Below are positions 6,981-38,566 of a stretch of 64,000 nt of DNA, piece by piece. This stretch comes from Eledone cirrhosa (taxonomy: Eukaryota). The notes below the pieces were generated by a model that was not told the origin of the DNA, did not search any database, and was given only the letters and a program-made list of their open reading frames with translations. The stretch spans positions 27,218,001 through 27,282,000 of the forward strand of contig OZ024764.1 in assembly GCA_964016885.1 (NCBI GenBank). Reading direction: 5' to 3'. The translations under genes and the position numbers were made by a program. How positions within the stretch are numbered: the stretch's first letter is position 1; each line of letters starts with the position of its first letter.

Positions 6981-9900
6981 GATTTATTAGCCACAGGGGC
7001 AGAGATGTCCATAACATTACATGACAGAATTATTAGCCACAGGGGCAGAGATTTCCATAACATTACATGTCAGAATTATTAGCCACAGGGGCAGATATGT
7101 CAATAACATTACATGACAGAGTTTCATCTTGCGCTCTCTCTCTCGTTTCATCTCGCTCTCCCTCTCTCTCGTTTCAACTCTGTCTTCCTCTCTCTCGTTT
7201 CATCTCGCTCTCTCTCTCTCTCGTTTCATCTCTGTCTTCCTCTCTCTCGTTCCATCTCTCTCTTCCTCTCTCTCGTTCCATCTCTCTCTTCCTCTCTTTC
7301 GTTTCATCTCTATCTCCCTTCTTTCATCTGTCTCTCTCTCTGTCGTTTCATCTCGCGCTCTCTCTCTCTCGTTTCATCTTGCGCTCTCTCTCTCTCGTTT
7401 CGTCTTGCTCTCTCTCTCTCTCGTTTCATCACTGTCTTCCTCTCTCTCGTTCCATCTCTCTATTCCTCTCTCTCGTTCCATCTCTCTCATCCTCTCTCTC
7501 GTTTCATCTCTATCTCCCTCCTTTCATCTGTCTCTCTCTCTGTCGTTTCATCTCGCGCTCTCTCTCTCTCGTTTCATCTTGCGCTCTCTCTCTCGTTTCA
7601 TCTCGTTCTCTCTCTCGTTTCATCTCTGTCTTCCTCTCTCTCGTTCCATCTCTCTCTTCCTCTCTCTCGTTCCATCTCTCTCTTCCTCTCTCTCGTTTCA
7701 TCTCTATCTCCCTTCTTTCATCTGTCTCGCTCTCTGTCGTTTCATCTCGCGCTCTCTCTCTCTCGTTTCATGTCGCGCTCTCTCTCTCTCGTTTCATCTC
7801 GCTCTCTCTCTCTCGTTTCATCTCTGTCTTCCTCTCTCTCGTGCCATCTCTCTCTTCCTCTCTCTCGTTTCATCTCTATCTCCCTTGTTTCATCTCTCTC
7901 TCGCTCTCTCGTTTCATCTCTCTCTCCCTCTCGTTTCATCTCGCTCTCTCTCTCCTGTTTCATCTCGCTCTCTCTCTCTCGTTTCATCTCTGTCTTCCTC
8001 TCTCTCGTTCCATCTCTGTCTTCCTCTCTCTGGTTCCATCTCTCGCTTCCTCTCTCTCGTTTCATCTCGCTCTCCCTCGTTTCATCTCTCTCTCGCTCTC
8101 TCGTTTCATCTCTCTCTCCCTCTCATTTCATCTCGCTCTCTCTCTCCTGTTTCATCTGGCTCTCTCTCTCTCCTGTTTCATCTCGCTCTCTACTCTCGTT
8201 TCCTCTCTCTCTCTCGTTTCATCTCTCTCTCCCTCCCGTTTCATCTCGCTCTCTCTCTCTCATTTCATCTCGCTCTCTCTCTCTCGTTTCATCTCGCTCT
8301 CCCTCTCTCGTTTCATCCCGCTCTCACTCTCTCATTTCTTCTCGCTCTCTCTCTCTTGTTTCAACACTCTAATCCCTCACTTGTTTACTATCTCTCAGAA
8401 TTATTAGCCACAGGGGCAGAGATGACCATAACATTACATGTCAGAAATATTAGCCACAAGGGCAGAGATGTCCATAACATTACATGACAGAATTATTAGC
8501 CACAGGGGCAGAGATGACCATAACATTACATGACAATTATTAGCCACAGGGGCAGATATGTCAATAACATTACATGACAGAGTTTCATCTCGCGCTCTCT
8601 CTCTCTCGTTTCATCTTGCGCTCTCTCTCTCTCTCGTTTCATCTTGCTCTCTCTCTCGTTTCATCTCTGTCTTCCTCTCTCTCGTTCCATCTCTCTCTTC
8701 CTCTCTCTCGTTCCATCTCTCTCATCCTCTCTCTCGTTTCATCTCTATCTCCCTCCTTTCATCTGTCTCTCTCTCTGTCGTTTCATCTCGCGCTCTCTCT
8801 CTCTCGTTTCATCTCGCGCTCTCTCTGTCTCGTTTCATCTCGCTCTCTCTCTCTCTCGTTTCATCTCTGTCTTCCTCTCTCTCGTTCCATCTCTCTCTTC
8901 CTCTCTCTCGTTCCATCTCTCTCTTCCTCTCTCTCGTTTCATCTCTATCTCCCTCGTTTCATCTCTCTCTCGCTCTCTCGTTTCATCTCTCTCTCCCGCT
9001 CGTTTCTTTTCGCTCTCTCTCTCCTGTTTCATCTCGCTCTCTACTCTCGTTTCCTCTCTCTCATTTCCTCTCTCTCTCGTTTCCTCTCTGTCTCGTTTCA
9101 TCTCGCTCTCTCTCTTTCTCGTTTGATCTCGCTCTCACTCTCTCGTTTCATCTCGCTTCTCTCACTCTCTTGTTTCATCTCGCTCTCTCTCTCTCTTCCT
9201 CTCTCTCTCTTGTTTCAACACTCTAATCCCTCACTTGTTTTATCTCTCTCTAATCCCTCACTTGGTTCATCTCTCTCAGAATTATTAGCCACAGGGGCAG
9301 AGATGTCCATAACATTACATGTCAGAATTATTAGCCACAGGGCAGAGATGTCCATAACATTACATGTCAGAATTATTAGCCACTGGGGCAGAGATGTCCA
9401 TAACATTACATGTCAGAATTATTAGCCACAGGGGTAGAGATGTCCATAACATTACATGACAGAATTATTAGCCACAGGGGCAGTGATGTCCATAACATTA
9501 CATGACAATTATTAGCCCCAAGGGCAGATATGTCCATAACATTACATGACAGAGTTCCATCTCGCGCTCTCTCTCTTCCTCTCTCTCGTTTCATCTCGCT
9601 CTCTCTCTCTCTCGTTTCATCTCGCTCTCTCGTTTCATCTCGCTCTCTCTCGTTTCATCTCTGTCTTCCTCTCTCTCGTTCCATCTCTCTCTTCCTCTCT
9701 CTCGTTTCATTTCTATCTCCCTCCTTTCATCTGTCTCTCTCTCTGTCGTTTCATCTCGCGCTCTCTCTCTCTCGATTCATCTCGCGCTCTCTCTCTCTCG
9801 TTTCATCTCGCTCTCTCTCTCTCTCGTTTCATCTCTGTCTTCCTCTCTCGCGTTCCATCTCTCTCTTCCTCCCTCTCTTCCTCTCTCTCGTTTCATCTCT

Positions 9901-12900
9901 ATCTCCCTCGTTTCATCTCTCTCTCCCTCTCGTTTCATCTCGCTCTCTCTCTCCTGTTTCATCTCGCTCTCTACTCTCGTTTCCTCTCTCTCGTTTCCTC
10001 TCTGTCTCGTTCCATCCCGCTCTCTCTCTCTCTCATTACATCTCGCTCTCTCTGTCTCGTTTCATCTCGCTCTCTCTCTCTCTCGTTTCATCTCGCTCTC
10101 ACTCTCTCGTTTCATCTCGCGTTTCATCTCACTCTCCCTGTCTCATTTCACCTCGCTCTCTCTCTCTCTTCCTCTCTCTCTCTTGTTTCAACACTCTAAT
10201 CCCTCACTTGTTTTATCTCTCTCTAATCCCTCACTTGTTTCATCTCTCTCAGAATTATTAGCCACAGGGGCAGAGATGTCCATAACATTACATGTCAGAA
10301 TTATTAGCCACAGGGCAGAGATGTCCATAACATTACATGTCAGAGTTATTAGCCACAGGGGCAGAGATGTCCATAACATTACATGTCAGAATTATTAGCC
10401 ACGGGGGCGGAGACGTCCATAACATTACATGACAGAATTATTAGCCACAGGGGCAGAGATGACCATAACATTACATGACAATTATTAGCCACAGGGGCAG
10501 ATATATCAATAACATTACATGATAGAGTTTCATCTCGCGCTCTCTCTCTCTCGTTTCATCTTGCTCTCTCTCTCTCTCGTTTCATCTCTGTCTTCCTCTC
10601 TCTCGTTCCATCTCTCTCTTCCTCTCTCCCGTTCCATCTCTCTCATCCTCTCTCTCGTTTCATCTCTATCTCCCTCCTTTCATCTGTCTCTCTCTGTCGT
10701 TTCATCTCGTGCTCTCTCTCTCTCGTTTCATCTCGCGCTCTCTCTGTCTCGTTTCATCTCGCTCTCTCTCTCTCTCGTTTCATCTCTGTCTTCCTCTCTC
10801 ACGTTCCATCTCTCTCTTCCTCTCTCTCGTTCCCTCTCTCTCTTCCTCTCTCTCGTTTCATCTCTATCTCCCTCGTTTCATCTCTCTCTCGCTCTCTCGT
10901 TTCATCTCTCTCTCCCTCTCGTTTCATCTCGCTCTCTACTCTCGTTTCCTCTCTCTCGTTTCCTCTCTGTCTCGTTCCATCCCGCTCTCTCTCTCTCACA
11001 TTACATCTCGCTCTCTCTGTCTCGTTTCATCTCGCTCTCTCTCTCTCTCGTTTCATCTCGCTCTCACTCTCTCGTTTCATCTCGCTTCTCTCACTATTGC
11101 GTTTCATCTCGCTCTCCCTGTCTCATTTCATCTCGCTCTCTCTCTCTCTCTTCCTCTCTCTCTCTTGTTTCAACACTCTAATCCCTCACTTGTTTTATCT
11201 CTCTCTAATCCCTCCCTTGTTTCATCTCTCTCAGAATTATTAGCCACTGGGGCAGAGATGTCCATAACATTACATGTCAGAGTTATTAGCCACAGGGGCA
11301 GAGATGTCCATAACATTACATGACAGAGTTTCATCTCGCGCTCTCTCTCTCTCGTTTCATCTCGCGCTCTCTCTCTTCCTCTCTCTCGTTTCATCTCGCT
11401 CTCTCTCTCTCTCGTTTCACCTCTGTCTTTCATCTCTCTCTTCCTCTCTCTCGTTCCATCTCTCTCTTCCTCTCTCTCGTTTCATCTCTATCTCCCTCCT
11501 TTCATCTGTCTCTCTCTCTGTCGTTTCATCTCGCGCTCTCTCTCTCTCGTTTCATCTCGCGCTCTCTCTCTCTCGTTTCATCTCGCTCTCTCTCTCTCTC
11601 GTTACATCTCTGTCTTCCTCTCTCTCGTTCCATCTCTCTCTTCCTCTCTCTCTTCCTCTCTCTCGTTTCATCTCTATCTCCCTCGTTTCATCTCTCTCTC
11701 CCTCTCGTTTCATCTCGCTCTCTCTCTCCTGTTTCATCTCGCTCTCTACTCTCGTTTCCTCTCTCTCGTTTCCTCTCTGTCTCGTTCCATCCCGCTCTCT
11801 TTCTCTCATTACATCTCGCTCTCTCTGTCTCGTTTCATCTCGCTCTCTCTCTCTCTCGTTTCATCTCGCTCTCACTCTCTCGTTTCATCTCGCGTTTCAT
11901 CTCACTCTCCCTGTCTCATTTCATCTCGCTCTCTCTCTCTCTTCCTCTCTCTCTCTTGTTTCAACACTCTAATCCCTCACTTGTTTTATCTCTCTCTAAT
12001 CCCTCACTTGTTTCATCTCTCTCAGAATTATTAGCCACAGGGGCAGAGATGTCCATAACATTACATGTCAGAATTATTAGCCACAGGGCAGAGATGTCCA
12101 TAACATTACATGTCAGAATTATTAGCCACAGGGGCAGAGATGTCCATAACATTACATGTCAGAATTATTAGCCACAGGGGCGGAGACGTCCATAACATTA
12201 CATGACAGAATTATTAGCCACAGGGGCAGAGATGACCATAACATTACATGACAATTATTAGCCACAGGGGCAGATATATCAATAACATTACATGATAGAG
12301 TTTCATCTCGCGCTCTCTCTCTCTCGTTTCATCTTGCGCTCTCTCTCTCTCGTTTCATCTTGCTATCTCTCTCTCTCGTTTCATCTCTGTATTCCTCTCT
12401 CTCGTTCCATCTCTCTATTCCTCTCTCTCGTTCCATCTCTCTCATCCTCTCTCTCGTTTTATCTGTATCTCCCTCCTTCAATCTGTCTCTCTCTCTGTCG
12501 TTTCATCTCGTGCTCTCTCTGTCTCGTTTCATCTCGCGCTCTCTCTGTCTCGTTTCATCTCGCTCTCTCTCTCTCTCTCGTTTCATCTCTGTCTTCCTCT
12601 CTCTCGTTCCATCTCTCTCTTCCTCTTTCTCGTTCCATCTCTCTCTTCCTCTCTCTCGTTTCATCTCTGTCTCCCTCGTTTCATCTCTCTCTCGCTCTCT
12701 CGTTTCATCTCTCTCTCCCTCTCGTTTCATCTCGCTCTCTACTCTCGTTTCCTCTCTCTCGTTTCCTCTCTGTCTCGTTCCATCCCGCTCTCTCTCTCTC
12801 TCATTACATCTCGCTCTCTCTGTCTCGTTTCATCTCGCTCTCTCTCGCTCTCGTTTCATCTCGCTCTCACTCTCTCGTTTCATCTCGCTTCTCTCACTAT

Positions 12901-15900
12901 TGCGTTTCATCTCGCTCTCCCTGTCTCATTTCATCTCGCTCTCTCTCTCTCTTCCTCTCTCTTGTTTCAACACCCTAATCCCTCACTTGTTTTATCTCTC
13001 TCTAATCCCTCACTTGTTTCATCTCTCTCAGAATTATTAGCCACAGGGGCAGAGATGTCCATAACATTACATGTCAGAGTTATTAGCCACAGGGGCAGAG
13101 ATGTCCATAACGTTACATGACAATTATTAGCCCCAAGGGCAGATATGTCCATAACATTACATGACAGAGTTTCATCTCGCGCTCTCTCTCTCTCGTTTCA
13201 TCTCGCGCTCTCTCTCTTCCTCTCTCTCGTTTCATCTCGCTCTCTCTCTCTCTCGTTTCACCTCTGTCTTCCATCTCTCTCTTCCTCTCTCTCGTTCCAT
13301 CTCACTCTTCCTCTCTCTCATTTCATCTCTCTCTCTCGTTTCATCTCTATCTCTCTCTCTCGTTTCATCTGTCTCTCTCTCTGTCGTTTCATCTCCCTCT
13401 ATCTCTCTCTCCCTCTCGTTTCATCTCGCTCTCTCTCTCCTGTTTCATCTCGCTCTCTCTCTCCTGTTTCATCTCGCTCTCTACTCTCGTTTCCTCTCTC
13501 TCTCCCTCCTGTTTCATCTCGCTCTCTCTCTCTCGTTTCATCTCGCTCTCACTCTCTCGTTTCATCTCGCTCTCTCTCTGTCTCGTTTCATCTCGCTCTC
13601 TCTCTCTCATTTCATCTCGCTCTCTCTCTCTCATTTCATCTCGCTCTCTCTCTCTCGTTTCATCTCGCTCTCACTCTCTCGTTTCATCTCGCTCTCACTC
13701 TCTCGTTTCATCTCGCTCTCCCTGTCTCGTTTCATCTCGCTCACACTCTCTCATTTCATCTCGCTCTCTCTCTCTTCTTTCAACACTCTAATCCCTCACT
13801 TGTTTCATCTCTCTCAGAATTATTAGCCACAGGGGCAGAGATGACCATAACATTACATGTCAGAATTATTAGCCACAGGGGCAGAGATGTCCATAACATT
13901 ACATGTCAGAATCATTAGCCACAGGGGCAGAGATGTCCATAACATTACATGACAGAATTATTAGCCACAGGGGCAGAGATGACCATAACATTACATGACA
14001 ATTATTAGCCACAGGGGCAGATATGTCAATAACATTACATGACAGAGTTTCATCTCGCGCTCTCTCTCTCTCTCGTGTCATCTTGCGCTCTCTCTCTGTC
14101 GTTTCCTCTCGCTCTCTCTCTCTCTCGTTTCATCTCTGTCTTCCTCTCTCTCGTTCCATCTCTCTCTTCCTCTCTCTCGTTCCATCTCTCTCTTCCTCTC
14201 TCTCGTTTCATCTGTCTCTCTCTCTCGGTCGTTTCATCTCGCGCTCTCTCTCTCTCGTTTCATCTCGCGCTCTCTCTCTCTCATTTCATCTCGCTCTCTC
14301 TCTCTCTCGTTTCATCTCTGTCTTCCTCTCTCTCTTCCTCTCTCTCGTTCCATCTCTCTCTTCCTCTCTCTCGTTTCATCTCTATCTCCCTCGTTTCATC
14401 TCTCTCTCGCTCTCTCGTTTCATCTCTCTCTCCCTCTCGTTTCATCTCGCTCTCTCTCTTCTGTTTCATCTCGCTCTCTACTCCCGTCTCCTCTCTGTCG
14501 TTTCCTCTCTGTCTCGTTTCATCTCGCTCTCCCTGTCTCATTTCATCTCGCTCTCTCTCTCTCTCTTCCTCTCTCTCTCTTGTTTCAACACTCTAATCCC
14601 TCACTTGTTTTATCTCTCTCTAATCCCTCACTTGTTTCATCTCTCTTAGAATTATTAGCCACAGGGGCAGAGATGTCCATAACATTACATGTCAGAATTA
14701 TTAGCCACAGGGCAGAGATGTCCATAACATTACATGTCAGAATTATTAGCCACAGGGGCAGAGATGTCCATAACATTACATGACAGAGTTTCATCTCGCT
14801 CTCTCTCTCTCTCGTTTCATCAGTGTCTTCCTCTCTCTCGTTCCATCTCTCTCTTGCTCTCTCTCGTTCCATCTCTATCTTCATCTCTCTCGTTTCATCT
14901 CTATCTCCCTCCTTTCATCTGTCTCTCTCTCTGTCGTTTCATCTCGCGCTCTCTCTCTCTCGTTTCATCTCGCGCTCTCTCTCTCTTTCTCTCTCTCGTT
15001 TCATCTCTATCTCCCTCGTTTCATCTGTCTCTCGCTCTCTCGTTTCATCTCTCTCTCCCTCTCGTTTCATCTCGCTCTCTACTCTCGTTTCCTCTCTCTC
15101 GCGTTCCATCCCGCTCTCTCTCTCTCTCATTACATCTCGCTCTCTCTGTCTCGTTTCATCTCGCTCTCTCTCTCTCTCGTTTCATCTCGCTCTCACTCTC
15201 TCGTTTCATCTCGCTTCTCTCACTCTCGTGTTTCATCTCGCTCTCCCTGTCTCATTTCATCTCGCTCTCTCTCTCTCTTCCTCTCTCTCTCTTGTTTCAA
15301 CACTCTAATCCCTCACTTGTTTTATCTCTCTCTAATCCCTCACTTGTTTCATCTCTCTCAGAATTATTAGCCACAGGGGCAGAGATGTCCATAACTTTAC
15401 ATGTCAGAATTATTAGCCACAGGGCAGAGATGTCCATAACATTACATGTCAGAATTATTAGCCACAGGGGCAGAGATGTCCATAACATTACATGACAGAA
15501 TTATTAGCCACAGGGGCAGAGATGTCCATAACATTACATGTCAGAATTATTAGACACAGGGCAGAGATGTCCATAACATTACATGTCAGAATTATTAGCC
15601 ACAGGGGCAGAGATGTCCATAACATTACATGTCAGAATTATTAGCCACAGGGGCCGAGATGTCCATAACATTACATGAAAGAATTATTAGCCACAGGGGC
15701 AGAGATGTCCATAACATTACATGACAGAATTATTAGCCACAGGGGCAGAGATGTCCATAACATTACATGACAATTATTAGCCCCAAGGGCAGATATGTCC
15801 ATAACATTACATGACAGAGTTTCATCTGGCGCTCTCTCTCTTCCTCTCTCTCGTTTCATCTCTGTCTTCCTCTCTCTCGTTCCATCTCTCTCTTCCTCTC

Positions 15901-16350
15901 GCTCGTTCCATCTCTCTCTTCCTCTCTCTCGTTTCATCTCGCTCTCACTCTCTCGTTTCATCTCGCTTCTCTCACTCTCGCGTTTCATCTCGCTCTCCCT
16001 GTCTCATTTCATCTCGCTCTCTCTCTCTCTTCCTCTCTCTCTCTTGTTTCAACACTCTAATCCCTCACTTGTTTTATCTCTCTCTAATCCCCCACGTGTT
16101 TCATCTCTCTCAGAATTATTAGCCACAGGGGCAGAGATGTCCATAACATTACATGTCAGAATTATTAGCCACAGGGCAGAGATGTCCATAACATTACATG
16201 TCAGAATTATTAACCACAGGGGCAGAGATGTCCATAACATAACATGACAGAATTATTAGCCACAGGGGCAGAGATGTCCATAACATTACATGACAGAATT
16301 ATTAGCCACAGGGGCAGATATGTCCATAACATTACATGACAGAGTTTCAT
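6981..16350 (-). repeat. Same composite satellite, inverted (pyrimidine-rich on +); left arm of macro-unit 1
   Basis: Reverse-complement monomers gaattattagccacaggggcagagatgtccataacattacatgaca alternate with (tc)n-gtttcatctcgc blocks. The array ends at ...agagtttcat|ctggttgg. Confidence 0.97.
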
Positions 16351-16391
16351 CTGGTTGGAGTAATAACAGTCTTGTTTATGTATATACACAC

Positions 16392-16423
<32 letters not shown>

Positions 16424-16527
16424 GTTTGTTCTTGTATTTCTATAGAAAAGGTAAAGAAAAGAAGAATGCTCTATGTATTGTACAGAGCTATTTAATTACA
16501 TAATAAACAACAGAATATAATTATTCC

Positions 16528-16965
16528 ATGCAAATAGACTTAGAATGGAAAACATTCAGACAGAGAAGAATGGATAATGAGCGTCGTAAGAGAAATTGGC
16601 CAACAATTAATATTAATGGAAATCTAGAAGAATTTCATATTAGTGATATGAATGTTTCGTGTGATCACTGTGAAGCTTTGAAATTTAGAAATGAAAATTG
16701 TAACTGTTGTAATAAAGGAAAGGTTGTGTTGCCTCCATTGCAAATATACCCCGAGAGACTGAGAAATCTCTTTGAAAGAGGCCAGGAAGCAGTTGATTTC
16801 ACAGAAACGTCTGCAATTAAAACTACATTTATTTCACTTCATTTGGTGTTACCACCCGGCAGAGGCCCGTATAGCTTTCATATTCAGGGTCAAACATATC
16901 ACTACACCCCCATCTCTGTAACCTGCAGAAAATACACCACAATATGGCCAGTTATATATTATTGA
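16528..16965 (+). pseudogene. Helitron RepHel N-terminal zinc-finger region (frameshifted)
   Basis: CDHCEALKFRNENCNCCNKGKVVLPPLQIYPERL and FHIQGQTYH match the CxxC..A.kF..E..CC..GKV.LP and RI.GQ.YH motifs typical of Helitron RepHel N-termini. Confidence 0.85.
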
Positions 16966-17011
16966 TGGGAACGAAGGTGTGTAGCACAGATTGGAAGTAC
17001 GACCAAATAAT

Positions 17012-17180
17012 TGTTTCTGGCACAAGGCCAGCAATTACTGGTACTTTATTCTATCGACCTCATAAGGATGAAAACAAAGTCAACCTTGGAGGGATTTGAA
17101 CCCAGAACGTAAAGGGCCATAACCCTATGCTGCAAAGCATGGTGTCTGACGCTCTACCGATACTGCCAATCCACCGCCCT
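17012..17180 (-). mobile_element. tRNA-derived SINE inserted in the Helitron
   Basis: The minus strand has an A-box-like tggcagtatcgg and a B-box gggttcaaatcc. Flanks are a degenerate 16-bp TSD: agtacgaccaaataat (16996-17011) and agtaccaacaaataat (17181-17196). Helitron-like peptide resumes after the insertion. Confidence 0.8.
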
Positions 17181-18480
17181 AGTACCAACAAATAATGAGT
17201 GCTCACCACAAAAAATGGCTATGATAAGAGAGGTGTTGCGTGATGTAATCCATATGTCGAAGTGTACAATACAATGCATGGCATCAAACAGCAAAGTGCA
17301 AGAAGAGAAAATTGTTGTGTACAGAACTGTAAATTAAGATTTAGAAGAGGATCAGATATGAGCTGCTATAATTTACCAACTAGTAATGATAGCTGTTGTT
17401 TTGTGGGGGATTGAGGGCAGACCACCTGTACAAAGAGATATTATCATCTTTCCTAAAGACCATCCTCCTCAGAATATATCACATAATTCATGCCACTTGG
17501 ACCTCATGACCAACCCATAATGGTGAATTTTGGTGGCATAGTGACATGGAGAGGAATGCAGGACCTGTGTTTGCAATAGACTGACAATGCAGGAGTATTA
17601 CATATACAGTATAGCATATAGAGGAGGATTTAGTGCGATATATAGGGCAGGTAAATTATTTTAGCAGTATTTAGTGGAAGCCTATATGAAAGTAGGGGGA
17701 TGCAGGCTTCAATATTTGAGGAACAATCAAGCCCAATTGTGAGTGGATGAGTATAATGGTTTAATGAATTATCTAAACAGATGATAACACTGAGCCTTAA
17801 GAAATGAAGACAAGATAAGAAACAGAGAAGACATTGACAGAATCGTGTCAGCAGAAATACCTGCATTGGAAGATGATCAAGTACTACATGAGCAGGTTTA
17901 AAAGTTTATGATACACGGGCCATGTGGTTCTGGAAACCCTTTTCCCCCATTTATACAAAATGGATTTTTCCAAAAGAACTATCCAAAAACCTACAGAAGG
18001 GAAACATTATTGAACCTAAATGGATACCCAGAGTACAGGAGGTGCAAGACAGGAACTGCAGTGTAAATTGGATGACATTCAGTAGATAACAGGAATGTTG
18101 TGCCATTTAATGCCTTTTTGCTTAAGAAATATTGTGCATATATTAATGTTGAAGTTTGTGCTTCTGTAAAAAGTGTCAAGTACCTCTTTAAATATGTTAC
18201 ATGGGGCATGATTGTACATCTATAGAAGTAACGAATAATGCATTACCTAATGAGGCTCAGAACCAACACAACCATGATGAAATAAGAACCTATCTTTGTT
18301 GCAGGTATGTGTCTCAGCCAGAAGCAGTGTCGTGTCTGTCCGAATTTAAGCTTCATGGTACATCACATACATTATACAGCCTAGCCACACACCTGGAGAA
18401 CAAACAGAGTTTACTTTCAAAGAGGCAATGCTCAGGTTGTGGTAGAAATGCAGGGACCCTTGCTGCCTGGTTCAAGCTAA
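17181..18480 (+). pseudogene. Helitron Rep domain remnants with stops, frameshifts and an internal deletion
   Basis: Hand translation gives YNLPT, RDIIIFPK, RLQYLRNNQAQL, DIDRIVSAEIP, MIHGPCG, NGYPEYRR, VDNRNVVPFN..LLKKY.AYINVEVCASVKSVKYLFKYV (Rep motif 3, YxxKY), DEIRTYL..RYVS.PEA and TLAAWFKLN. Confidence 0.9.
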
Positions 18481-18872
18481 ATGAACTTGCTTACACCTTC
18501 TGGGATGCCGCCTCACAAACTCCAATTAAAAGCAGGATCAATAATAATGCTTCTATGGAATATTTCAATCCAGAACAGATTATGTAATGGCACAAGCTTA
18601 GAAGTAGTAGAACTGCATAAACATTTTATCAAAGCTTCTCATATCTATGGTCCTTTGATGGGCAGGTGTGTTTTGATCCCAAGACTGAAGTTAGCCCCCA
18701 GTGGTGCCAACATCCTTTTTACTTTGGAAAGACCCCAGTTTCCATTAAGACTGTCATATGCCATGACAATCAACAAGAACCATGGTCAAATACATGGTAA
18801 AGTGGGTCTGTTCCTCCCTGAGCAAGTATTTAACCCTGGACAATTGTATGTTGCTTTTTCAAGAGTTCACAG
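18481..18872 (+). pseudogene. Helitron PIF1-family helicase, C-terminal part only
   Basis: PSGMPPHKLQLKAG, LCNGT, IPRLKL, RPQFPLRLSYAMTINKNHGQ and VFNPGQLYVAFSRV are PIF1 C-terminal motifs. No Walker A/B is present upstream. Confidence 0.92.
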
Positions 18873-20215: not shown

Positions 20216-20250
20216 CTTTAGACAGAATATCTATCACTGTTAAGTAATAA

Positions 20251-26179: not shown

Positions 26180-27070
26180 CTGGTTGGAGCAATAACAGTC
26201 TTGTTTATGTATATACATATATATATATATTTACATGTTTGTTCTTGTATTTCCATAGAAAAGGTAAAGAAAAGAAGAGTGCTCTATGTATTGTACAGAG
26301 CTATTTAATTACATAATAAACAACAGAATGGAAAACATTCAGACAGAGAAGAATGGATAATGAGCGTTGTAAGAGAAATTGGCCAACAATTAATATTAAT
26401 GGAAATGTAGAAGAATTTCATATTAGTGATATGAATGTTTCGTGTGATCACTGTGGAGCTTTGAAATTTAGAAATGAAAATTGTAACTGTTGTAATAAAG
26501 GAAAGGTTGTGTTGCCACCATTGCAAATATACCCTGAGAGACTGAGAAATCTCTTTGAAAGAGGCCAGGAAGCAGTTGATTTCACAGAAACATCTGCAAT
26601 TAAAACTACATTTATTTCACTTCATTTGGTGTTACCACCCGGCAGAGGCCCGTATAGCTTTCATATTCAGGGTCAAACATATCACTACACCCCCATCTCT
26701 GTAACCTGCAGAAAATACACCACAATATGACCAGTTATATATTATTGATGGGAACGAAGGTGTGTAGCACAGATTGGAAGTACAACCAAATAATTGTTTC
26801 TGGCACAAGGCCAGCAATTACTGGTACTTTATTCTATCGACCTCATAAGGATGAAAACAAAGTCAACCTTGGAGGGATTTGAACCCAGAACGTAAATGGC
26901 CATAACCCTATGCTGTAAAGCATGGTGTCTGGCGCTCTACCGATACTGCCAATTCACTGCCCTAGTACCAACAAATAATGACTGCTCACCATAAAAAATG
27001 GCTATGATAAGAGAAGTGTTGCATGAACGTAATTCATATGTCGAAGTGTACAATACAATGCATGGCATCA
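26180..27070 (+). mobile_element. Partial direct duplicate of the Helitron 5' region (Zn-finger ORF 26353-26730 plus the same SINE)
   Basis: Matches 16351-17286 with scattered substitutions and a 30-bp deletion between two agaat repeats. Confidence 0.92.
26795..26963 (-). mobile_element. tRNA-derived SINE, same insertion site as 17012-17180
   Basis: Same sequence and same TSD (agtacaaccaaataat / agtaccaacaaataat). Confidence 0.8.
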
Positions 27071-27649
27071 CAAATGAATATATATATATATATATATATA
27101 TACTACTAAAGTGTATGTAAAATTTTAAAATAAATACTTAAATTCAATTTGTATAATTACACATACAATATGTTTTGTTGTAAAACCCTAAATAATGATT
27201 TAAGAAATGATGTCAATCTCTTTGTACAGAGAAAAACAATTTATATATATGCATTGTGTGCGCGTGTATACTCCATTTAAGACATTGAAAAACCTAGTAC
27301 CTCCTTCAAAGAATGTCAAATAGTTTATGCCTAAGGTGTAACACTAATTAAGTTACCGGTGTAGATATTTCAGTTGAACCCTGCTTCAAACATGCATATT
27401 ATTATTATATATTTTCAAACACACTTACATACATTATATTTATACACATAGAAATAATAAGTTAAAACTAAAGTATAATGATATAACAACAGCATATAAT
27501 AGTTTTCTTCACTTTATTGAAATGCAATCGTTTTAAAGAAAAAACATGACAGTATAAGAAATATTTAATATGATAACATAATATTTCAGGTAGGATGGTG
27601 GTTTCTCTATGATGGTGGTTTCTCTTTGAACTAATAATTGTTTCTATTT

Positions 27650-27780
27650 TAGGCACAAGGTCAGTAATTAACCAGTACATTACTAGTACTTTATTTTATC
27701 GACCCCGTAAGGATGAAAGGCAAAGTTGATCTCGGATCGTAAAGGGACGTAACTATGCTGGAAAGCATGGCGTCAGACCC
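27650..27780 (-). mobile_element. SINE copy whose tRNA head is truncated by the satellite
   Basis: ggcacaagg..tactttattttatcgaccccgtaaggatgaaaggcaaagttgatctcgg..aaagcatggcgtc is homologous to 17019-17150, then switches abruptly to the GA satellite. Confidence 0.75.
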
Positions 27781-30700
27781 GAGAGACAGAGAGAGCGAGA
27801 TTACACGAGACAGAGAGCGAGATGAAATGAGAGAGAGAGAGAGAGAGATGAAACGAGAGAGAGAGTGCGAGATGAAACGAGAGTGAGAGAGCGAGATGAA
27901 ACGAGAGAGTGAGAGCGAGATGAAATGAGAGAGAGAGAGAACGAGATGAAATGAGAGAGAGAGAGAGCGAGATGAAATGAGACATAGAGAGATGAAACGA
28001 GAGAGAGATGAAACGAGAAAGAGAGGAAACGAGAGAGAGGAAACGTGAGTAGAGAGCGAGATGAAACAGGAGAGAGAGAGCGAGATGAAAGGAGAGGGAG
28101 AGAGAGATGAAACGAGAGAGAGAGAGAGAGATAGAGGGAAATGAAACGACAGAGAGAGAGACAGATGAAACGAGGGATATAGAGATGAAACGAGAGAGAG
28201 AGATGAAACGAGAGAGAGGAAGAGAGAGATAGAACGAGAGAGAGGAAGAGAGAGATGAAACGAGAGAGAAGAAGACAGAGGTGAAACGAGAGAGAGAGAG
28301 AGCGAGATGAAACGAGAGAGAGAGCGAGATGAAACGAGAGAGAGGAAGAGAGAGAGCGAGAGATGAAACTCTGTCATGGACATATCTGACCCTGGGGCTA
28401 ATAATTGTCATGTAATGTTATGGACATCTCTGCCCCTGTGGCTAATAATTCTGTCATGTAATGTTATGGACATCTCTGCCCCTGTGGCTAATAATTCTGT
28501 CATGTAATGTTATGGAAATCTCTGCCCCTGTGGCTAATAATTCTGACATGGAATGTTATGGAATCTCTGCCCCTGTGGCTAATAAATCTGTCATTTAATG
28601 TTACGGACATCTCTGCCACTGTGGCTAATAAATCTGTCATGTAATGTTATGGACATCTCTGCCCCTGTGGCTAATAATTCTGACATGTAATGTTATGGAC
28701 ATCTCTGCCCCTGTAGCTAATAATTCTGACATGTAATGTTATGGACATCTCTGCCCCTGTGGCTAATAAATTCGTCATGTAATGTTATGGACATCTCTGC
28801 CCCTGTGGCTAATAAATCTGTCATGTAATGTTATGGACATCTCTGCCCCTGTGGCTAATAATTCTGACATGTAATGTTATGGACATCTCTGCCCCTGTGG
28901 CTAATAATTCTGACATGTAATGTTATGGACATCTCTGCCCCTGTGGCTAATAATTCTGAGAGAGATGAAACAAGTGAGGGATTAGAGAGAGATGAAACAA
29001 GTGAGGGATTAGAGTGTTGAAACAAGAGAGAGAGAGGAAGAGAGAGTGAGAGCGAGATGAAACGAGAGAGAGAGAGAGAGCGAGATGAAATGAGAGAGAG
29101 AGAGCGAGATGAAATGAGAGAGAGAGAGCGAGATGAAACGAGACAGAGAGAGCGGGATGAAACGTGACAGAGAGAGCAAGAGCGAGATGAAACGAGACAG
29201 AGAGAGCGAGATGAAACGAGAGAGAGAGAGCGAGATGAAATGAGAGAGAGAGAGCGAGATGAAATGAGAGAGAGAGAGCGAGATGAAACGAGAGAGTGAG
29301 AGCGAGATGGAACGAGACAGAGAGAGCGAGATGAAACGAGAGTAAGGGAGCTAGATGAAACGAGAGAGAGAGGAAACGAGAGATACGAAACGAGAGAGAG
29401 GAAACGAGAGTAGAGAGCGAGATGAAACAGGAGAGAGAGAGCGAGATGAAACAGGAGAGAGAAAGCGAGATGAAACGAGAGGGAGAGAGAGATGAAACGA
29501 GAGAGCGAGAGAGAGATAGAGGGAGATGAAACGACAGAGAGAGAGACAGATGAAACGAGGGAGATAGAGATGAAACGAGAGAGAGAGATGAAACGAGAGA
29601 GAGGAAGAGAGAGATGGAACGAGAGAGAGGAAGAGAGAGATGGAACGAGAGAGAGGAAGACAGAGATGAAACGAGAGAGAGAGAGAGCAAGATGAAACGA
29701 GAGAGAGGAAGAGAGAGATGGAACGAGAGAGAGGAAGAGAGAGATGGAACGAGCGAGAGGAAGACAGAGATGAAACGAGACAGAGAGAGATCGAGATGAA
29801 ACGAGAGAGAGGAAGAGAGAGAGCGCAAGATGAAACGAGAGAGAGAGAGAGAGCGAGATGAAACGAGAGAGAGGAAGAGAGAGAGCGCGAGATGAAACGA
29901 GAGAGAGGAAGAGAGAGAGCGCGAGATGAAGTGAGAGAGAGAGAGCGAGATGAAATGAGAGATTGAGAGTGAGATGAAACGAGAGAGTGAGAGAGAGCGA
30001 GATGAAATGAGAGAGAGAGAGCGAGATGAAATGAGAGAGAGAGAGCGAGATGAAATGAGAGAGAGAGAGCGAGATGAAACGAGACAGAGAGAGCGGGATG
30101 AAACGAGACAGAGAGATCGAGATGAAATGAGAGAGAGAGAGCGAGATGAAATGAGAGAGAGAGAGCGAGATGAAACGAGAGAGTGAGAGCGAGATGGAAC
30201 GAGTCAGAGAGAGCGAGATGATACGAGAGAGTGAGAGCTAGATGAAACGAGAGAGAGAGGAAACGAGAGAGAGAGGAAACTAGAGAGAGGAAACAAGAGA
30301 GAGGAAACGAGAGTAGAGAGCAAGATGAAACAGGAGAGAGAGAGAGCGAGATGAAACCGGAGAGAGAGAGCGAGATGAAACGAGAGGGAGGGAGAGATGA
30401 AACGAGAGAGCGAGAGAGAGATAGAGGGAGATGAAACGAGAGAGTGATAGCTAGATGAAACGAGAGAGAGAGGAATAGAGAGATGGAACGAGAGAGAGGA
30501 AGACAGATATGAAACGAGAGAGAGAGAGAGCGAGATGAAACGAGAGAGAGGAAGAGAGAGAGCGCGAGATGAAACGAGAGAGAGAGAGCGAGATGAAACG
30601 AGAGAGAGAGAGCGAGATGAAACGAGAGAGAGAGAGCGAGATGAAACGAGAGAGAGGAAGAGAGAGAGCGCGAGATGAAAGTCTGTCATGTAATGTTATG

Positions 30701-33700
30701 GACATATCTGCCCTTGGGGCTAATAATTGTCATGTAATGTTATGGACATATCTACCCTTGGGGCTAATAATTGTCATGTAATGTTATGTACATCTCTGCC
30801 CCTGTGGCAAATAATTCTGTCATGTAATGTTATAGACATCTCTGTCCCTGTGGCTAATAATTATGTCATGTAATGTTATGGACATCTCTGCCCCTGTGGC
30901 TAATAATTCTGTCATGTAATGTTATGGACATCTCTGCCCCTGTGGCTAATAAATTTGTCATGTAATGTTATGGACATCTCTGCCCCTGTGGCTAATAAAT
31001 CTGTCATGTAATGTTATGGACATCTCTGCCCCTGTGGCTAATAATTCTGACATGTAATGTTATGGATATCTCTGCCCCTGTGGCTAATAATTCTGAGAGA
31101 GATGAAACAAGTGAGGGATAAGAGAGAGATGAAACAAGTGAGGGATTAGAGTGTTGAAACAAGAGAGAGAGAGGAAGAGAGAGTGAGAGCGAGATCAAAC
31201 GAGAGAGAGAGAGAGAGCGAGATGAAATGAGAGAGAGAGAACGAGATGAAATGAGAGAGAGAGAGCGAGATGAAACGAGACAGAGAGAGCGGGATGAAAC
31301 GTGACAGAGAGAGCAAGAGCGAGATGAAACGAGACAGAGAGAGCGAGATGAAACGAGAGAGAGAGAGCGAGATGAAATGAGAGAGAGAGAGCGAGATGAA
31401 ATGAGAGAGAGAGAGCGAGATGAAACGAGAGAGTGAGAGCGAGATGGAACGAGACAGAGAGAGCGACATGAAACGAGAGTAGGAGAGCTAGATGAAACGA
31501 GAGAGAGAGGAAACGAGAGATACGAAACGAGAGAGAGGAAACGAGAGTAGAGAGCGAGATGAAACAGGAGAGAGAGAGCGAGATGAAACAGGAGAGAGAA
31601 AGCGAGATGAAACGAGAGGGAGAGAGAGATGAAACGAGAGAGCGAGAGAGAGATAGAGGGAGATGAAACGACAGAGAGAGAGACAGATGAAACGAGGGAG
31701 ATAGAGATGAAACGAGAGAGAGAGATGAAACGAGAGAGAGGAAGAGAGAGATGGAACGAGAGAGAGGAAGAGAGAGATGGAACGAGAGAGAGGAAGACAG
31801 AGATGAAACGAGAGAGAGAGAGAGCAAGATGAAACGAGAGAGAGGAAGAGAGAGATGGAACGAGAGAGAGGAAGAGAGAGATGGAACGAGCGAGAGGAGG
31901 ACAGAGATGAAACGAGACAGAGAGAGATCGAGATGAAACGAGAGAGAGGAAGAGAGAGAGCGCAAGATGAAACGAGAGAGAGAGAGAGAGCGAGATGAAA
32001 CGAGAGAGAGGAAGAGAGAGAGCGCGAGATGAAACGAGAGAGAGGAAGAGAGAGAGCGCGAGATGAAGTGAGAGAGAGAGAGCGAGAGGAAATGAGAGAT
32101 TGAGAGTGAGATGAAACGAGAGAGTGAGAGAGAGCGAGATGAAATGAGAGAGAGAGAGCGAGATGAAATGAGAGAGAGAGAGCGAGATGAAATGAGAGAG
32201 AGAGAGCGAGATGAAACGAGACAGAGAGAGCGGGATGAAACGAGACAGAGAGATCGAGATGAAATGAGAGAGAGAGAGCGAGATGAAATGAGAGAGAGAG
32301 AGCGAGATGAAACGAGAGAGTGAGAGCGAGATGGAACGAGTCAGAGAGAGCGAGATGAAACGAGAGAGTGAGAGCTAGATGAAACGAGAGAGAGAGGAAA
32401 CGAGAGAGAGAGGAAACTAGAGAGAGGAAACAAGAGAGAGGAAACGAGAGTAGAGAGCAAGATGAAACAGGAGAGAGAGAGAGCGAGATGAAACCGGAGA
32501 GAGAGAGCGAGATGAAACGAGAGGGAGGGAGAGATGAAACGAGAGAGCGAGAGAGAGATAGAGGGAGATGAAACGAGAGAGTGATAGCTAGATGAAACGA
32601 GAGAGAGAGGAATAGAGAGATGGAACGAGAGAGAGGAAGACAGATATGAAACGAGAGAGAGAGAGAGCGAGATGAAACGAGAGAGAGGAAGAGAGAGAGC
32701 GCGAGATGAAACGAGAGAGAGAGAGCGAGATGTAACGAGAGAGAGAGAGCGAGATGAAACGAGAGAGAGGAAGAGAGAGAGCGCGAGATGAAAGTCTGTC
32801 ATGTAATGTTATGGACATATCTGCCCTTGGGGCTAATAATTGTCATGTAATGTTATGGACATATCTACCCTTGGGGCTAATAATTGTCATGTAATGTTAT
32901 GTACATCTCTGCCCCTGTGGCAAATAATTCTGTCATGTAATGTTATGGACATCTCTGTCCCTGTGGCTAATAATTATGTCATGTAATGTTATGGACATCT
33001 CTGCCCCTGTGGCTAATAATTCTGTCATGTAATGTTATGGACATCTCTGCCCCTGTGGCTAATAAATTTGTCATGTAATGTTATGGACATCTCTGCCCCT
33101 GTGGCTAATAAATCTGTCATGTAATGTTATGGACATCTCTGCCCCTGTGGCTAATAATTCTGACATGTAATGTTATGGATATCTCTGCCCCTGTGGCTAA
33201 TAATTCTGAGAGAGATGAAACAAGTGAGGGATAAGAGAGAGATGAAACAAGTGAGGGATTAGAGTGTTGAAACAAGAGAGAGAGAGGAAAAGAGAGTGAG
33301 AGCGAGATCAAACGAGAGAGAGAGAGCAAGATGAAATGAGAGAGTGAGAGCGAGATGAAACGAGAGAGAGAGAGCGAGATGAAATGAGAGAGAGAGAGCG
33401 AGATGAAATGAGAGAGAGAGAGCGAGATGAAACGAGACAGAGAGAGCGAGGTGAAACGAGAGAGAGAGAGAGCGAAATGAAACGAGACAGATTAGAGCGA
33501 GATGAAACGAGAGAGAGAGAGCGAGATGAAATGAGAGAGAGAGAGCGAGATGAAACGAGAGAGTGAGAGCTAGAGGAAACGATAGAGAGAGGAAACGAGA
33601 GAGAGAGGAAACGAGAGAGAGGATACGAGAGTGAGGAAACGAGAGTAGAGAGCGAGATGAAACAGGAGAGAGAGAGCGAGATGAAACAGGAGAGAGAGAG

Positions 33701-36700
33701 AGCGAGATGAAACGAAAGGGAGAGAGAGATGAAACGAGAGAGCGAGAGAGAGATAGAGGGAGATGAAACGACAGAGAGAGAGACAGATGAAACAAGTGAG
33801 GGATAAGAGAGAGATGAAACAAGTGAGGGATTAGAGTGTTGAAACAAGAGAGAGAGAGGAAGAGAGAGTGAGAGCGAGATCAAACGAGAGAGAGAGAGCG
33901 AGATGAAATGAGAGAGTGAGAGCGAGATGAAACGAGAGAGAGAGAGCGAGATGAAATGAGAGAGCGAGAGCGAGATGAAATGAGAGAGAGAGAGCGAGAT
34001 GAAACGAGACAGAGAGAGCGAGATGAAACGAGAGAGAGAGAGAGCGAAATGAAACGAGACAGATTAGAGCGAGATGAAACGAGAGAGAGAGAGCGAGATG
34101 AAATGAGAGAGAGAGAGCGAGATGAAACGAGAGAGTGAGAGCTAGAGGAAACGAGAGAGAGAGGAAACGAGAGTAGAGAGCGAGATGAAACAGGAGAGAG
34201 AGAGCGAGATGAAACAGGAGAGAGAGAGCGAGATGAAACAGGAGAGAGAGAGCGAGATGAAACAGGAGAGAGAGAGCGAGATGAAACGAGAGGGAGAGAG
34301 AGATGAAACGAGAGAGCGAGAGAGAGATAGAGGGAGATGAAACGACAGAGAGAGAGACAGATGAAACGAGGGAGATAGAGATGAAACGAGAGAGAGAGAT
34401 GAAACGAGAGAGAGGAAGAGAGAGATGGAACGAGAGAGAGGAAGAGAGAGCTGGAACGAGAGAGAGGAAGACAGAGATGAAACGAGAGAGAGAGAGAGCG
34501 AGATGAAACGAGAGAGAGGAAGAGAGAGAACGCGAGATGAAACGAGAGAGAGAGAGAGCAAGATGAAACGAGAGAGAGGAAGAGAGAGAGCGCAAGATGA
34601 AACGAGAGAGAGAGAGCGCGAGATGAAAGTCTGTCATGTAATGTTATGGACACATCTGCCCTTGGGGCTAATAATTGTCATGTAATGTTATGGAAATCTC
34701 TGCCCCTGTGGCTAATAATTCTGTCATGTAATGTTATGGACATCTCTGCCCCTGTGGCTAATAATTCTGTCATGTAATGTTATGGACATCTCTGCCCCTG
34801 GGGCTAATAAATCTGTCATGTAATGTTATGGACATCTCTGCCCCTGTGGCTAATAATTCTGACATGTAATGTTATGGACATCTCTGCCCCTGTGGCTAAT
34901 AAATATGACATGTAATGTTATGGACATCTCTGCCCCTGTGGCTAATAAATCTGTCATGTAATGTTATGGACATCTCTGCCCCTGTGGCTAATAATTCTGA
35001 CATGTAATGTTATGGACATCTCTGCCCCTGTGGCTAATAATTCTGAGATAGATGAAACAAGTGAGGGATTAGATAGAGATGAAACAAGTGAGGGATTAGA
35101 GTGTTGAAACAAGAGAGAGAGAGGAAGAGAGAGTGAAAGCGAAATCAAACGAGAGAGAGCGAGATGAAATGAGAGAGTGAGAGCGAGATGAAACGAGAGA
35201 GAGAGAGAGAGAGCGAGATGAAATGAGAGAGAGAGAGCGAGATGAAATGAGAGAGAGAGAGCGAGATGAAACGAGACAGAGAGAGCGGGATGAAACGAGA
35301 CAGAGAGAGCGAGAGCGAGATGAAACGAGACAGAGAGAGCGAGATGAAACGAGAGAGAGAGAGCGAGATGAAATGAGAGAGAGAGAGCGAGATGAAATGA
35401 GAGAGAGAGAGCGAGATGAAACGAGAGAGTGAGAGCGAGATGGAACGAGACAGAGAGAGCGAGATGAAACGAGAGTGGGAGAGCTAGATGAAACGAGAGA
35501 GAGAGGAAACGAGAGAGACGAAACGAGAGAGAGGAAACGAGAGTAGAGAGCGAGATGAAACAGGAGAGAGAGAGCGAGATGAAACAGGAGAGAGAGAGCG
35601 AGATGAAACGAGAGGGAGAGAGAGATGAAACGAGAGAGCGAGAGAGAGATAGAGGGAGATGAAACGACAGAGAGAGATACAGATGAAACGAGGGAGATAG
35701 AGATGAAACGAGAGAGAGAGATGAAACGAGAGAGAGGAAGAGAGAGATGGAACGAGAGAGAGGAAGAGAGAGATGGAACGAGAGAGAGGAAGACAGAGAT
35801 GAAACGAGAGAGAGAGAGAGCAAGATGAAACGAGAGAGAGAGATGTAACGAGAGAGAGGAAGAGAGAGATGGAACGAGAGAGAGGAAGAGAGAGATGGAA
35901 CGAGCGAGAGGAAGACAGAGATGAAACGAGACAGAGAGAGATCGAGATGAAACGAGAGAGAGGAAGAGAGAGAGCGCAAGATGAAACGAGAGAGAGAGAG
36001 AGAGCGAGATGAAACGAGAGAGAGGAAGAGAGAGAGCGCGAGATGAAACGAGAGAGAGGAAGAGAGAGAGCGCGAGATGAAATGAGAGAGAGAGAGCGAG
36101 ATGAAATGAGAGATTGAGAGTGAGATGAAACGAGAGAGTGAGAGAGAGCGAGATGAAATGAGAGAGAGAGAGCGAGATGAAATGAGAGAGAGAGAGCGAG
36201 ATGAAACGAGACAGAGAGAGCGGGATGAAACGAGACAGAGAGATCGAGATGAAATGAGAGAGAGAGAGCGAGATGAAATGAGAGAGAGAGAGCGAGATGA
36301 AACGAGAGAGTGAGAGCGAGATGGAACGAGTCAGAGAGAGCGAGATGAAACGAGAGAGTGAGAGCTAGATGAAACGAGAGAGAGAGGAAACGAGAGAGAG
36401 AGGAAACGAGAGAGAGGAAACGAGAGAGAGGAAACGAGAGTAGAGAGCAAGATGAAACAGGAGAGAGAGAGAGCGAGATGAAACCGGAGAGAGAGAGCGA
36501 GATGAAACGAGTGGGAGGGAGAGATGAAACGAGAGAGCGAGAGAGAGATAGAGGGAGATGAAACGAGAGAGTGATAGCTAGATGAAACGAGAGAGAGAGG
36601 AATAGAGAGATGGAACGAGAGAGAGGACGACAGATATGAAACGAGAGAGAGAGAGCGAGATGAAACGAGAGAGAGGAAGAGAGAGAGCGCGAGATGAAAC

Positions 36701-38566
36701 GAGAGAGAGAGCGAGATGAAACGAGAGAGAGAGAGAGCGAGATGAAACGAGAGAGAGGAAGAGAGAGAGCGCGAGATGAAAGTCTGTCATGTAATGTTAT
36801 GGACATATCTGCCCCTGGGGCTAATAATTGTCATGTAATGTTATGGACATATCTGCCCTTGGGGCTAATAATTGTCATGTAATGTTATGTACATCTCTGC
36901 CCCTGTGGCAAATAATTCTGTCATGTAATGTTATGGACATCTCTGTCCCTGTGGCTAATAATTATGTCATGTAATGTTATGGACATCTCTGCCCCTGTGG
37001 CTAATAATTCTGTCATGTAATCTTATGGACATCTCTGCCCCTGTGGCTAATAAATTCGTCATGTAATGTTATGGACATCTCTGCCCCTGTGGCTAATAAA
37101 TCTGTCATGTAATGTTATGGACATCTCTGCCCCTGTGGCTAATAATTCTGACATGTAATGTTATGGATATCTCTGCCCCTGTGGCTAATAATTCTGAGAG
37201 AGATGAAACAAGTGAGGGATAAGAGAGAGATGAAACAAGTGAGGGATTAGAGTGTTGAAACAAGAGAGAGAGAGGAAGAGAGAGTGAGAGCGAGATCAAA
37301 CGAGAGAGAGAGAGCGAGATGAAATGAGAGAGTGAGACCGAGATGAAACGAGAGAGAGAGAGCGAGATGAAATGAGAGAGAGAGAGCGAGATGAAATGAG
37401 AGAGAGAGAGCGAGATGAAACGAGACAGAGAGAGCGAGATGAAACGAGAGAGAGAGAGAGCGAAATGAAACGAGACAGATTAGAGCGAGATGAAACGAGA
37501 GAGAGAGAGCGAGATGAAACGAGAGAGTGAGAGCTAGAGGAAACGAGAGCTAGAGGAAACGAGAGAGAGAGGAAACGAGAGAGAGGATACGAGAGAGAGG
37601 AAACGAGAGTAGAGAGCGAGATGAAACAGGAGAGAGAGAGCGAGATGAAACAGGAGAGAGAGAGCGAGATGAAACGAGAGGGAGAGAGAGATGAAACGAG
37701 AGAGCGAGAGAGAGATAGAGGGAGATGAAACGACAGAGAGAGAGACAGATGAAACGAGGGAGATAGAGATGAAACGAGAGAGAGAGATGAAACGAGAGAG
37801 AGGAAGAGAGAGATGGAACGAGAGAGAGGAAGAGAGAGATGGAACGAGAGAGAGGAAGACAGAGATGAAACGAGAGAGAGAGAGAGCGAGATGAAACGAG
37901 AGAGAGGAAGAGAGAGAACGCGAGATGAAACGAGAGAGAGAGCAAGATGAAACGAGAGAGAGGAAGAGAGAGAGCGCAAGATGAAACGAGACAGAGAGAG
38001 CGCGAGATGAAAGTCTGTCATGTAATGTTATGGACATATCTGCCCTTGGGGCTAATAATTGTCATGTAATGTTATGGAAATCTCTGCCCCTGTGGCTAAT
38101 AATTCTGTCATGTAATGTTATGGACATCTCTGCCCCTGTGGCTAATAATTCTGTCATGTAATGTTATGAACATCTCTGCCCCTGTGGCTAATAAATCTGT
38201 CATGTAATGTTATGGACATCTCTGCCCCTGTGGCTAATAATTCTGACATGTAATGTTATGGACATCTCTGCCCCTGTGGCTAATAAATATGACATGTAAT
38301 GTTATGGACATCTCTGCCCCTGTGGCTAATAAATCTGTCATGTAATGTTATGGACATCTCTGCCCCTGTGGCTAATAATTCTGACATGTAATGTTATGGA
38401 CATCTCTGCCCCTGTGGCTAATAAATCTGTCATGTAATGTTATGGACATCTCTGCCCCTGTGGCTAATAATTCTGACATGTAATGTTATGGACATCTCTG
38501 CCCCTGTGGCTAATAATTCTGACATGTAATGTTATGGACATCTCTGCCCCTGTGGCTAATAATTCT
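27781..38566 (+). repeat. Composite satellite, purine-rich orientation; right arm of macro-unit 1
   Basis: Same 46-bp/GA grammar. Includes a ~2.1-kb internal duplication (ORFs 29492/31629 and 30705/32818). Confidence 0.97.

Follow-up and report, generated by a model that had tools for sequence, protein, structure and literature searches.

Large satellite arrays whose multi-kilobase subarrays face in opposite directions have been described as macro-dyads in Tribolium (T. freemani TfSat01/TfSat03, PMC12581902; T. madens TmSat1/TmSat2, PMC13081366). In the available parts of these reports the inversion site is conserved and made of two cut monomers and a short loop free of foreign DNA, and arms of unequal length alternate with a conserved spacer. 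Such symmetries are said to be documented in Tribolium alone in the available text of PMC13081366. Human composite repeats (ACRO, LSAU-BSAT and TELO) are tandem units with at least three repeat types and scraps of transposons, according to the accessible portion of bioRxiv 10.1101/2021.07.12.451456; they include satellite arrays of variable length, attributed there to unequal crossing over. A recurring, shared transposon mosaic copied by host recombination is reported within satellites of Linaria, Misopates and Harmonia (accessible portion of bioRxiv 10.64898/2026.09.17.752431). Close to these systems is the locus analysed here, a window of 64,000 nucleotides from the octopus Eledone cirrhosa (assembly GCA_964016885.1, contig OZ024764.1, positions 27,218,001 to 27,282,000), which carries a tandem unit formed by a core of transposon debris between two oppositely oriented satellite arms.

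It is likely that this locus is a tandem composite macrosatellite with a unit of 27-32 kb, founded by one old inversion and expanded by unequal recombination of the host. The unit is multi-copy and not an echo of the assembly, and its copies probably number from tens to low hundreds. Its composite nature comes from a compound satellite, a Helitron remnant, inserts resembling short interspersed elements (SINEs), a minisatellite and inverted elements. The arms consist of one compound satellite, in which 46-bp monomer arrays and blocks of 24/26-bp GA-rich units follow each other in alternation, and satellite makes up about two thirds of the unit.

The arm-core-arm order and its direct repetition were found by base composition, self-BLAST and repeat scans of the window. 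The strand changes from purine-rich to pyrimidine-rich at 6981 and again at 38567, and both cores are compositionally neutral. Unit 1 is composed of an arm of 9.4 kb, a core of 11.4 kb and an arm of 10.8 kb, and the direct repeat starts at 38569. An earlier sequence-only reading had proposed such a unit, its repetition and the tail of a preceding unit; this layout stands, with borders refined to 6983, 16351, 27781 and 38569. Its parts are the following.

1-6982, plus strand: R0, distal purine-strand arm of the preceding unit, delimited by composition and repeat scans.
6970-6995: head-to-head inversion site within the 46-bp monomer, with a 7-nt spacer and a 2-bp overlap (6981-6982), without foreign DNA.
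6983-16350, minus strand: L1, pyrimidine-rich left arm, with 11 arrays of the 46-bp monomer (53 copies) and GA blocks of 0.3-1.3 kb.
16351-16354: join of the left arm to the Helitron by 4-bp microhomology, the Helitron copy being cut on its 5' side.
16351-27780: core of unit 1, a mosaic of transposon scraps.
27679-27780, plus strand: cut copy of a SINE-like element at the join between core and right arm.
27781-38568, plus strand: R1, purine-rich right arm, with 6 arrays (60 monomers) and GA blocks of 0.8-1.7 kb.
38556-38581: the inversion site again, without any difference from the first copy.
38569-44027, minus strand: L2, left arm of unit 2, 5.5 kb long and shorter than L1, with 6 arrays (38 monomers).
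44028-54337, plus strand: core of unit 2, 99.8% identical to core 1 save for one deletion.
54338-64000, plus strand: R2, right arm of unit 2, colinear with R1 and cut by the window end, with 51 monomers seen.

The tandem, near-identical nature of the units is indicated by the 99.8% identity of the cores together with the two identical junctions, and by the high core depth in other sequencing runs. The cores lie in direct, not inverted, orientation. Over 10,278 compared bases there are 19 substitutions and one 2-bp indel between them, and the (TA)n tracts have kept their lengths. A borrowed octopus rate, implied in the available text of PMC13282606, gives a rough date of ~0.26 million years for the split of these neighbouring units. 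R2 matches R1 block for block up to the window end, which is consistent with the next junction predicted in the sequence-only reading near 65,100, beyond the window. The 60 bases spanning each inversion junction are identical at the two sites (2/2), and two identical junctions imply at least three units. When its phase is shifted, the array reads as a two-armed satellite array (R plus L, 16-20 kb), a conserved cassette and another two-armed array.

The unit was also followed in other individuals through the public runs X1, X2, X4, X7 and X9, X3 (share 0.06) and X8 (0.00) being left out. Part of 16430-21300 was found in 7 of the 11 listed runs, under four organism codes. Core depth was measured over 16310-19440 in four runs. 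In X4, seven of the eight listed core pieces are ~99% identical and have a depth of 665-1,447, while the eighth, with 12 differences, has a depth of 6.8 and other stray contigs 6-20. If a depth of 6-20 is taken as single-copy, the unit would be present in 33-175 copies (1-5 Mb). The sequence-only reading had named single-copy depth over the core as a sign of an assembly or haplotype duplication; depth in other individuals is high and not single-copy.

The ratio of monomer to core depth is 81-134 in X4 (edge bins), 83-119 in X1 (core depth from 5 of 8 pieces, a partial match, the insert and the duplicated part being excluded); in X9 it is 52 (core depth from 25 of 30 bins). Unit 1 carries 113 monomers, and ratios near this number imply that arms and core travel together. 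Reads across the inversion junction were sought with a probe of one monomer plus 20 bases past the junction. About 11 of 1,138 X9 reads span it, from 3 starts and with 8-9 strand-switch joints, and many X9 reads stop or continue differently at AATT (6978). Ligation chimeras were considered as the source of the junction reads and rejected, since a chimera would lose the 7-nt spacer and no such deletion or joint is listed. Stoichiometry and junction reads together suggest tandem copies. The idea that X1 represents a species with a single-copy core was also set aside: only 587 of its contigs were compared and its monomer-to-core ratio is like that of X4, which fits shallow coverage.

Both window cores carry letters at 17420, 17679, 17696, 17879, 17913 and 18338 that are absent from X4, X7 and X1 at full depth. 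These shared letters imply that X4, X7 and X1 are not the source of the window and that the window copies were homogenised together, as expected under array-wide homogenisation. In X7, a run of unrecorded kind with 88 million letters and contigs of up to 24 kb, core depth is 6-60; there may be low-level transcription of the core if this is an RNA run.

These data bear on the explanation of the repeated unit as a single or collapsed locus duplicated by the assembly or by haplotypes, which would agree with the absence of the junction from public contigs. Such an artefact is scarcely credible. The differences between the cores are substitutions, not homopolymer errors, and the two identical junctions already call for a third unit. 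Core depth is high and junction reads occur in individuals whose letters are unlike those of the window, and the arms are not mirror images of each other, unlike those of a read fold-back chimera.

The two kinds of arm are related and distinct. The window contains 251 monomers (R0 49, L1 53, R1 60, L2 38 and R2 51), and only 4 of 72 monomer types are common to L and R. L blocks are mostly ~0.7 kb long and R blocks 0.8, 1.4 or 1.7 kb. The best long inverted matches between arms detected by self-BLAST are only 80-88% identical, and mirror identity around the junction is 0.86-0.92 across the monomer block and 0.53-0.71 further out. The arms nevertheless use a common block grammar, which implies descent from a common ancestor. 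The designation of the arms as inverted satellite arms in the sequence-only reading holds, therefore, for the shared satellite family and the opposite orientation; the arms are not inverted copies of each other.

In a tree of all 28 block starts, unrooted and with a bootstrap not fully settled, one branch (support 97/94) separates L from R, and blocks at matching positions pair across units. This pairing implies that the whole unit was duplicated, that blocks were gained and lost within arms and that opposite arms did not correct each other. Two direct copies suffice for unequal exchange to multiply a tandem unit, and such exchange does not mix opposite arms. This inability to mix opposite arms fits the split between L and R in the tree. 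Block gains and losses and in-register pairing are likewise consistent with unequal crossing over as the putative mechanism. At the end of R0, the last 2.3 kb (4674-6982) recur as a 99.2% direct copy at 1-2323, where they continue into normal satellite; this internal recurrence shows that the arm end is not a special terminus.

Foldback transposons of the FB-NOF type have long, internally repetitive inverted termini. A giant transposon of this kind, with satellite terminal repeats and propagated here as a concatemer, could thus be suspected from arms that are long, internally repetitive and oppositely oriented. It is a most improbable origin of the unit and the earlier suggestion of it did not hold up. 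Beyond the monomer block the arms are mirror-identical at only 65-71%, and L and R form separate lineages that do not mix. Both junctions join arm to arm without a target-site duplication (TSD) or target DNA (the array ends lie outside the window). There is no non-repetitive outer or terminal domain: the ends are cuts in the 46-bp monomer, and the terminal segment recurs at 1-2323. No cut-and-paste transposase was found in Pfam scans of the core. Known terminal inverted repeats of foldback elements reach ~1.7 kb and are accompanied by TSDs of 8-10 bp (available text of PMC4079207).

Strand polarity is strict. The GA-unit word has 459 matches in R arms, all on the plus strand, and 256 in L arms, all on the minus strand, with one further match in each core. 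The purine strand thus runs outward on both sides of the core, as had been noticed from the letters alone, and this is one of just two outcomes of an inversion in a strand-asymmetric satellite. As a side observation, the core match at 25648-25665 lies in an element resembling a miniature inverted-repeat transposable element (MITE), where 17 of 18 columns match the 27-bp linker of the satellite in R-arm orientation. Seeding of the GA unit from this element is possible, but 11 of 200 shuffles score as high, which is not significant.

An outward purine strand on both sides and a purine-then-pyrimidine junction are also what a fusion of chromosome ends, or a relic of breakage-fusion-bridge cycles, would leave if the satellite were a telomere-like or subtelomeric cap. 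TTAGGG is the one telomere motif determined in a cephalopod (available text of PMC13218726). The 64 kb contain 2 TTAGGG and 3 CCCTAA single hexamers and no dimer, and fusion-bridge cycles would invert the cores, which are direct here. An end fusion is accordingly very unlikely, though the array may still lie in a subtelomeric region.

The core is a graveyard of transposon fragments, listed below with the segment that distinguishes the two units.

16351-18880, plus strand: remains of a dead Helitron (RepHel), interrupted by a SINE-like insert at about 17034-17180.
18881-19450, plus strand: unrelated fragment, its PHD-finger match weak and under the cut-off (E 0.029).
19453-20095, plus strand: 55-bp minisatellite of about 12 copies, from the repeat scan.
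21311-24171: non-coding inverted pairs around (TA)n/(TG)n tracts, from self-BLAST.
23425-24546: 1,122 bp of unit 1 missing from unit 2.
26180-27070, plus strand: the 5' part of the Helitron a second time, insert included, with 24 substitutions relative to 16351-17286 over 890 bases.

Helitrons have by definition a 5' TC end and a 3' end formed by a hairpin plus CTRR. No hairpin-CTRR end follows the helicase in the core: among 82 CTRR-T sites, the 4 accompanied by a hairpin fall within the SINE-like insert or TA/TG tracts. Four pieces of the remnant match residues 115-222, 637-683, 694-735 and 1330-1460 of Helraiser (7lcc). About 595 residues (736-1329), including the Walker A motif, are absent, just 274 bases lying between 18207 and 18481, and the frame is broken throughout by many stops and shifts. 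In the comparison with public runs the SINE-like insert exceeds a depth of 1 million. The two Helitron 5' copies (16351-17286 and 26180-27070) are 9.8 kb apart and diverge by 2.7%, with many C>T and G>A changes; they may go back to an older tandem duplication within the core, and a doubled depth in X1 suggests that both are present there too.

Amplification as a rolling circle, driven by the core Helitron or by one supplied in trans, starts from the fact that the core holds a true Helitron remnant and that recently active Helitrons are reported in O. vulgaris (available text of PMC13282606). The remnant has a broken frame, lacks residues 736-1329 with Walker A and has no hairpin-CTRR end; its 5' side is cut by satellite and the unit borders are not Helitron ends. 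Neighbouring units differ by kilobases of arm blocks, unlike the products of one rolling-circle round. Propagation by this Helitron, entertained in the sequence-only reading, is thus extremely doubtful.

No coding function is predicted for the core from its sequence. Pif1_2B is the only match above cut-off in the Pfam scan, and none of 95 further stop-free core pieces (0/95) has a match to a Pfam family, a transposase included, although small exons may escape such a scan. A 238-residue frame at 18481-19194 was rejected as a gene, two extra bases at 18874 splitting it in unit 2, X4, X7 and X1. Rfam gave 41 matches on 16000-28500, all below the gathering score and within TA/TG tracts, and a scan for transfer and transfer-messenger RNAs gave none. 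The fragment at 18881-19450 is presumably a scrap of a retroelement open reading frame 1 (ORF1). By their motif, the fragments at 20251-20454 and about 25830-25970 may be C-terminal ends of CRE-type retrotransposons. The first of them has no Pfam match and no homolog among 234 candidates (0/234), and the CRE-like fragment found just unnamed clusters with low recognition in the atlas. The segment 21311-22240 is self-inverted and 22436-23022 is inverted relative to 23577-24171; these pairs would be MITE-like. Through the unit-2 deletion an internal inverted pair of 600 bp has lost one of its arms, as happens when palindromes erode.

The joins between arms and core would record how the unit was founded. 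The L arm is an inverted segment between direct repeats, with one inverted join (6981) and one microhomology join (16351-16354); the four bases of the latter occur both where the satellite continues (15818-15836) and in the other Helitron copy (26166-26191). A founding rearrangement with two joins, one head-to-head and nearly in the same phase of the 46-bp monomer, the other into the Helitron by 4-bp microhomology, would leave two direct copies of the core with an inverted stretch of satellite between them, in the layout termed duplication-triplication/inversion-duplication (DUP-TRP/INV-DUP). The near-same-phase joining weakly favours a fold-back origin of the head-to-head join, and the inversion site has a predicted hairpin of -48 kcal/mol over 92 nt. 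Exchange between the direct copies would then multiply the unit to tens to low hundreds and keep neighbours alike, and out-of-register exchange would gain or lose blocks inside each arm. Opposite-facing arms would not exchange and would hence drift apart. In a DUP-TRP/INV-DUP product the inverted segment is expected to duplicate its direct neighbour, with a 1-2-3-2-1 copy profile; here the block grammar common to L and R indicates shared ancestry of arms that have since diverged. It is also observed that the last monomer of each L arm (6975-6982) ends in a variant present once per L arm and 15-17 times per R arm; this variant may be a trace of the founding join.

The macrosatellite reading has points that weigh against it. 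The window shows just two full units. Depth is not copy number, and the core depths come from 16310-19440 only, with stray contigs standing in for a single-copy control. Central X4 monomer bins (to 308,958) raise the monomer-to-core ratio to ~345 unless overlapping contigs inflate them, and X9 is a reduced-representation library, unevenly covered at depths of 2-246 over 25 core bins. The junction is missing from all contigs of X4, X1 and X2, with ~900x expected in X4; graph cleaning or hairpin drop-out may account for the missing contigs, and a gap of this kind is no proof of absence. Joining in the same phase would occur by chance with a probability of ~0.055 (about 1 in 18). L blocks are more diverse than R blocks on the unrooted tree, and either arm may be the copy. 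The option already present in the earlier reading, a macrosatellite that grew by unequal exchange once a single inversion had occurred, fits all the tests.

A different interpretation keeps the same layout and gives it a role. The unit would be a centromeric or pericentromeric module, a two-armed array with a conserved inversion site and a cassette, present on many chromosomes and carried between them by circles or ectopic exchange. Its layout is that of T. freemani TfSat01 arrays with 4-kb cassettes (available text of PMC12581902). The inversion site is identical in both copies and present in another individual, and the monomer-to-core stoichiometry is similar under two organism labels. The 33-175 estimated copies could be enough for 30 chromosome pairs (three octopods have 2n=60, accessible portion of PMC5646656). 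The estimated share is just 0.04-0.2% of a 2.8-Gb genome (the size of that of O. vulgaris, accessible portion of PMC13282606) versus 38% in T. madens, which speaks against a dominant pericentromeric DNA, the arms are not kept alike, and simple descent from one founder also gives a conserved junction. Such a module is rather unlikely, and the same modest chance is given to its wider form, a module of the octopus lineage that occurs in short runs on many chromosomes, keeps a fixed ratio of ~100 monomers to each core in related species and is carried by circles. If the pericentromeric reading were true, a macro-dyad like that of Tribolium would have been reached independently in molluscs, with a core made of a transposon mosaic, and the unit would be the first candidate for cephalopod centromeric DNA.

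As the likely macrosatellite, the unit would extend to a mollusc the macro-dyad architecture reported only from Tribolium. Descent from a single founder join can produce a conserved inversion site between arms that do not correct each other, and a junction of this origin is a useful null model for claims of functional inversion sites. A multi-copy unit shared across organism labels is also a ready probe for fluorescence in situ hybridisation and for CENP-A. Neither a new mobile element nor a telomere system is indicated.

The searched literature, which did not cover subscription papers, gave no account of such satellite or centromere DNA in octopus. In the main text of the paper on O. vulgaris repeats no word begins with 'satellite' or 'centromer' (PMC13282606, whose supplements may hold such repeats), and the words octopus, cephalopod and mollusc are absent from the text of bioRxiv 10.64898/2026.09.17.752431. 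The Amaranthus EPSPS replicon was considered as an analogue with inverted arrays and discarded, its arrays being in fact direct in the available text of bioRxiv 2020.04.09.032896.

Comparison with the described systems places the unit among them without making it identical to any. Foldback elements FB-NOF, Galileo and Tetris share long, internally repetitive opposite flanks around a middle domain (PMC4079207, accessible portion), but the octopus arms are several times longer, adjoin the next unit directly and have no matched inverted termini. DUP-TRP/INV-DUP rearrangements likewise place an inverted segment amid direct repeats, with an inverted join and a second join showing 0-4 bp of microhomology; those described in the accessible portion of PMC10766186 are single recent events, whereas the octopus product would have been amplified and its arms have diverged. 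The Linaria, Misopates and Harmonia mosaics keep the strand of the surrounding satellite, as far as the available text of their report goes, and the octopus satellite reverses across every core. Relative to the human composites, the octopus unit is about two thirds satellite and has two opposite arms; inverted arms are not seen in the available text on the human repeats. In contrast to the Tribolium macro-dyads as presented in the available parts of their reports, its spacer is a non-palindromic transposon mosaic of 10-11 kb and not a 4-kb second satellite, its arms are distinct higher-order subfamilies, and its copies are estimated in tens to hundreds, not thousands; it also belongs to another phylum. 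The octopus unit is thus built from known parts by known processes, and is unusual in its scale.

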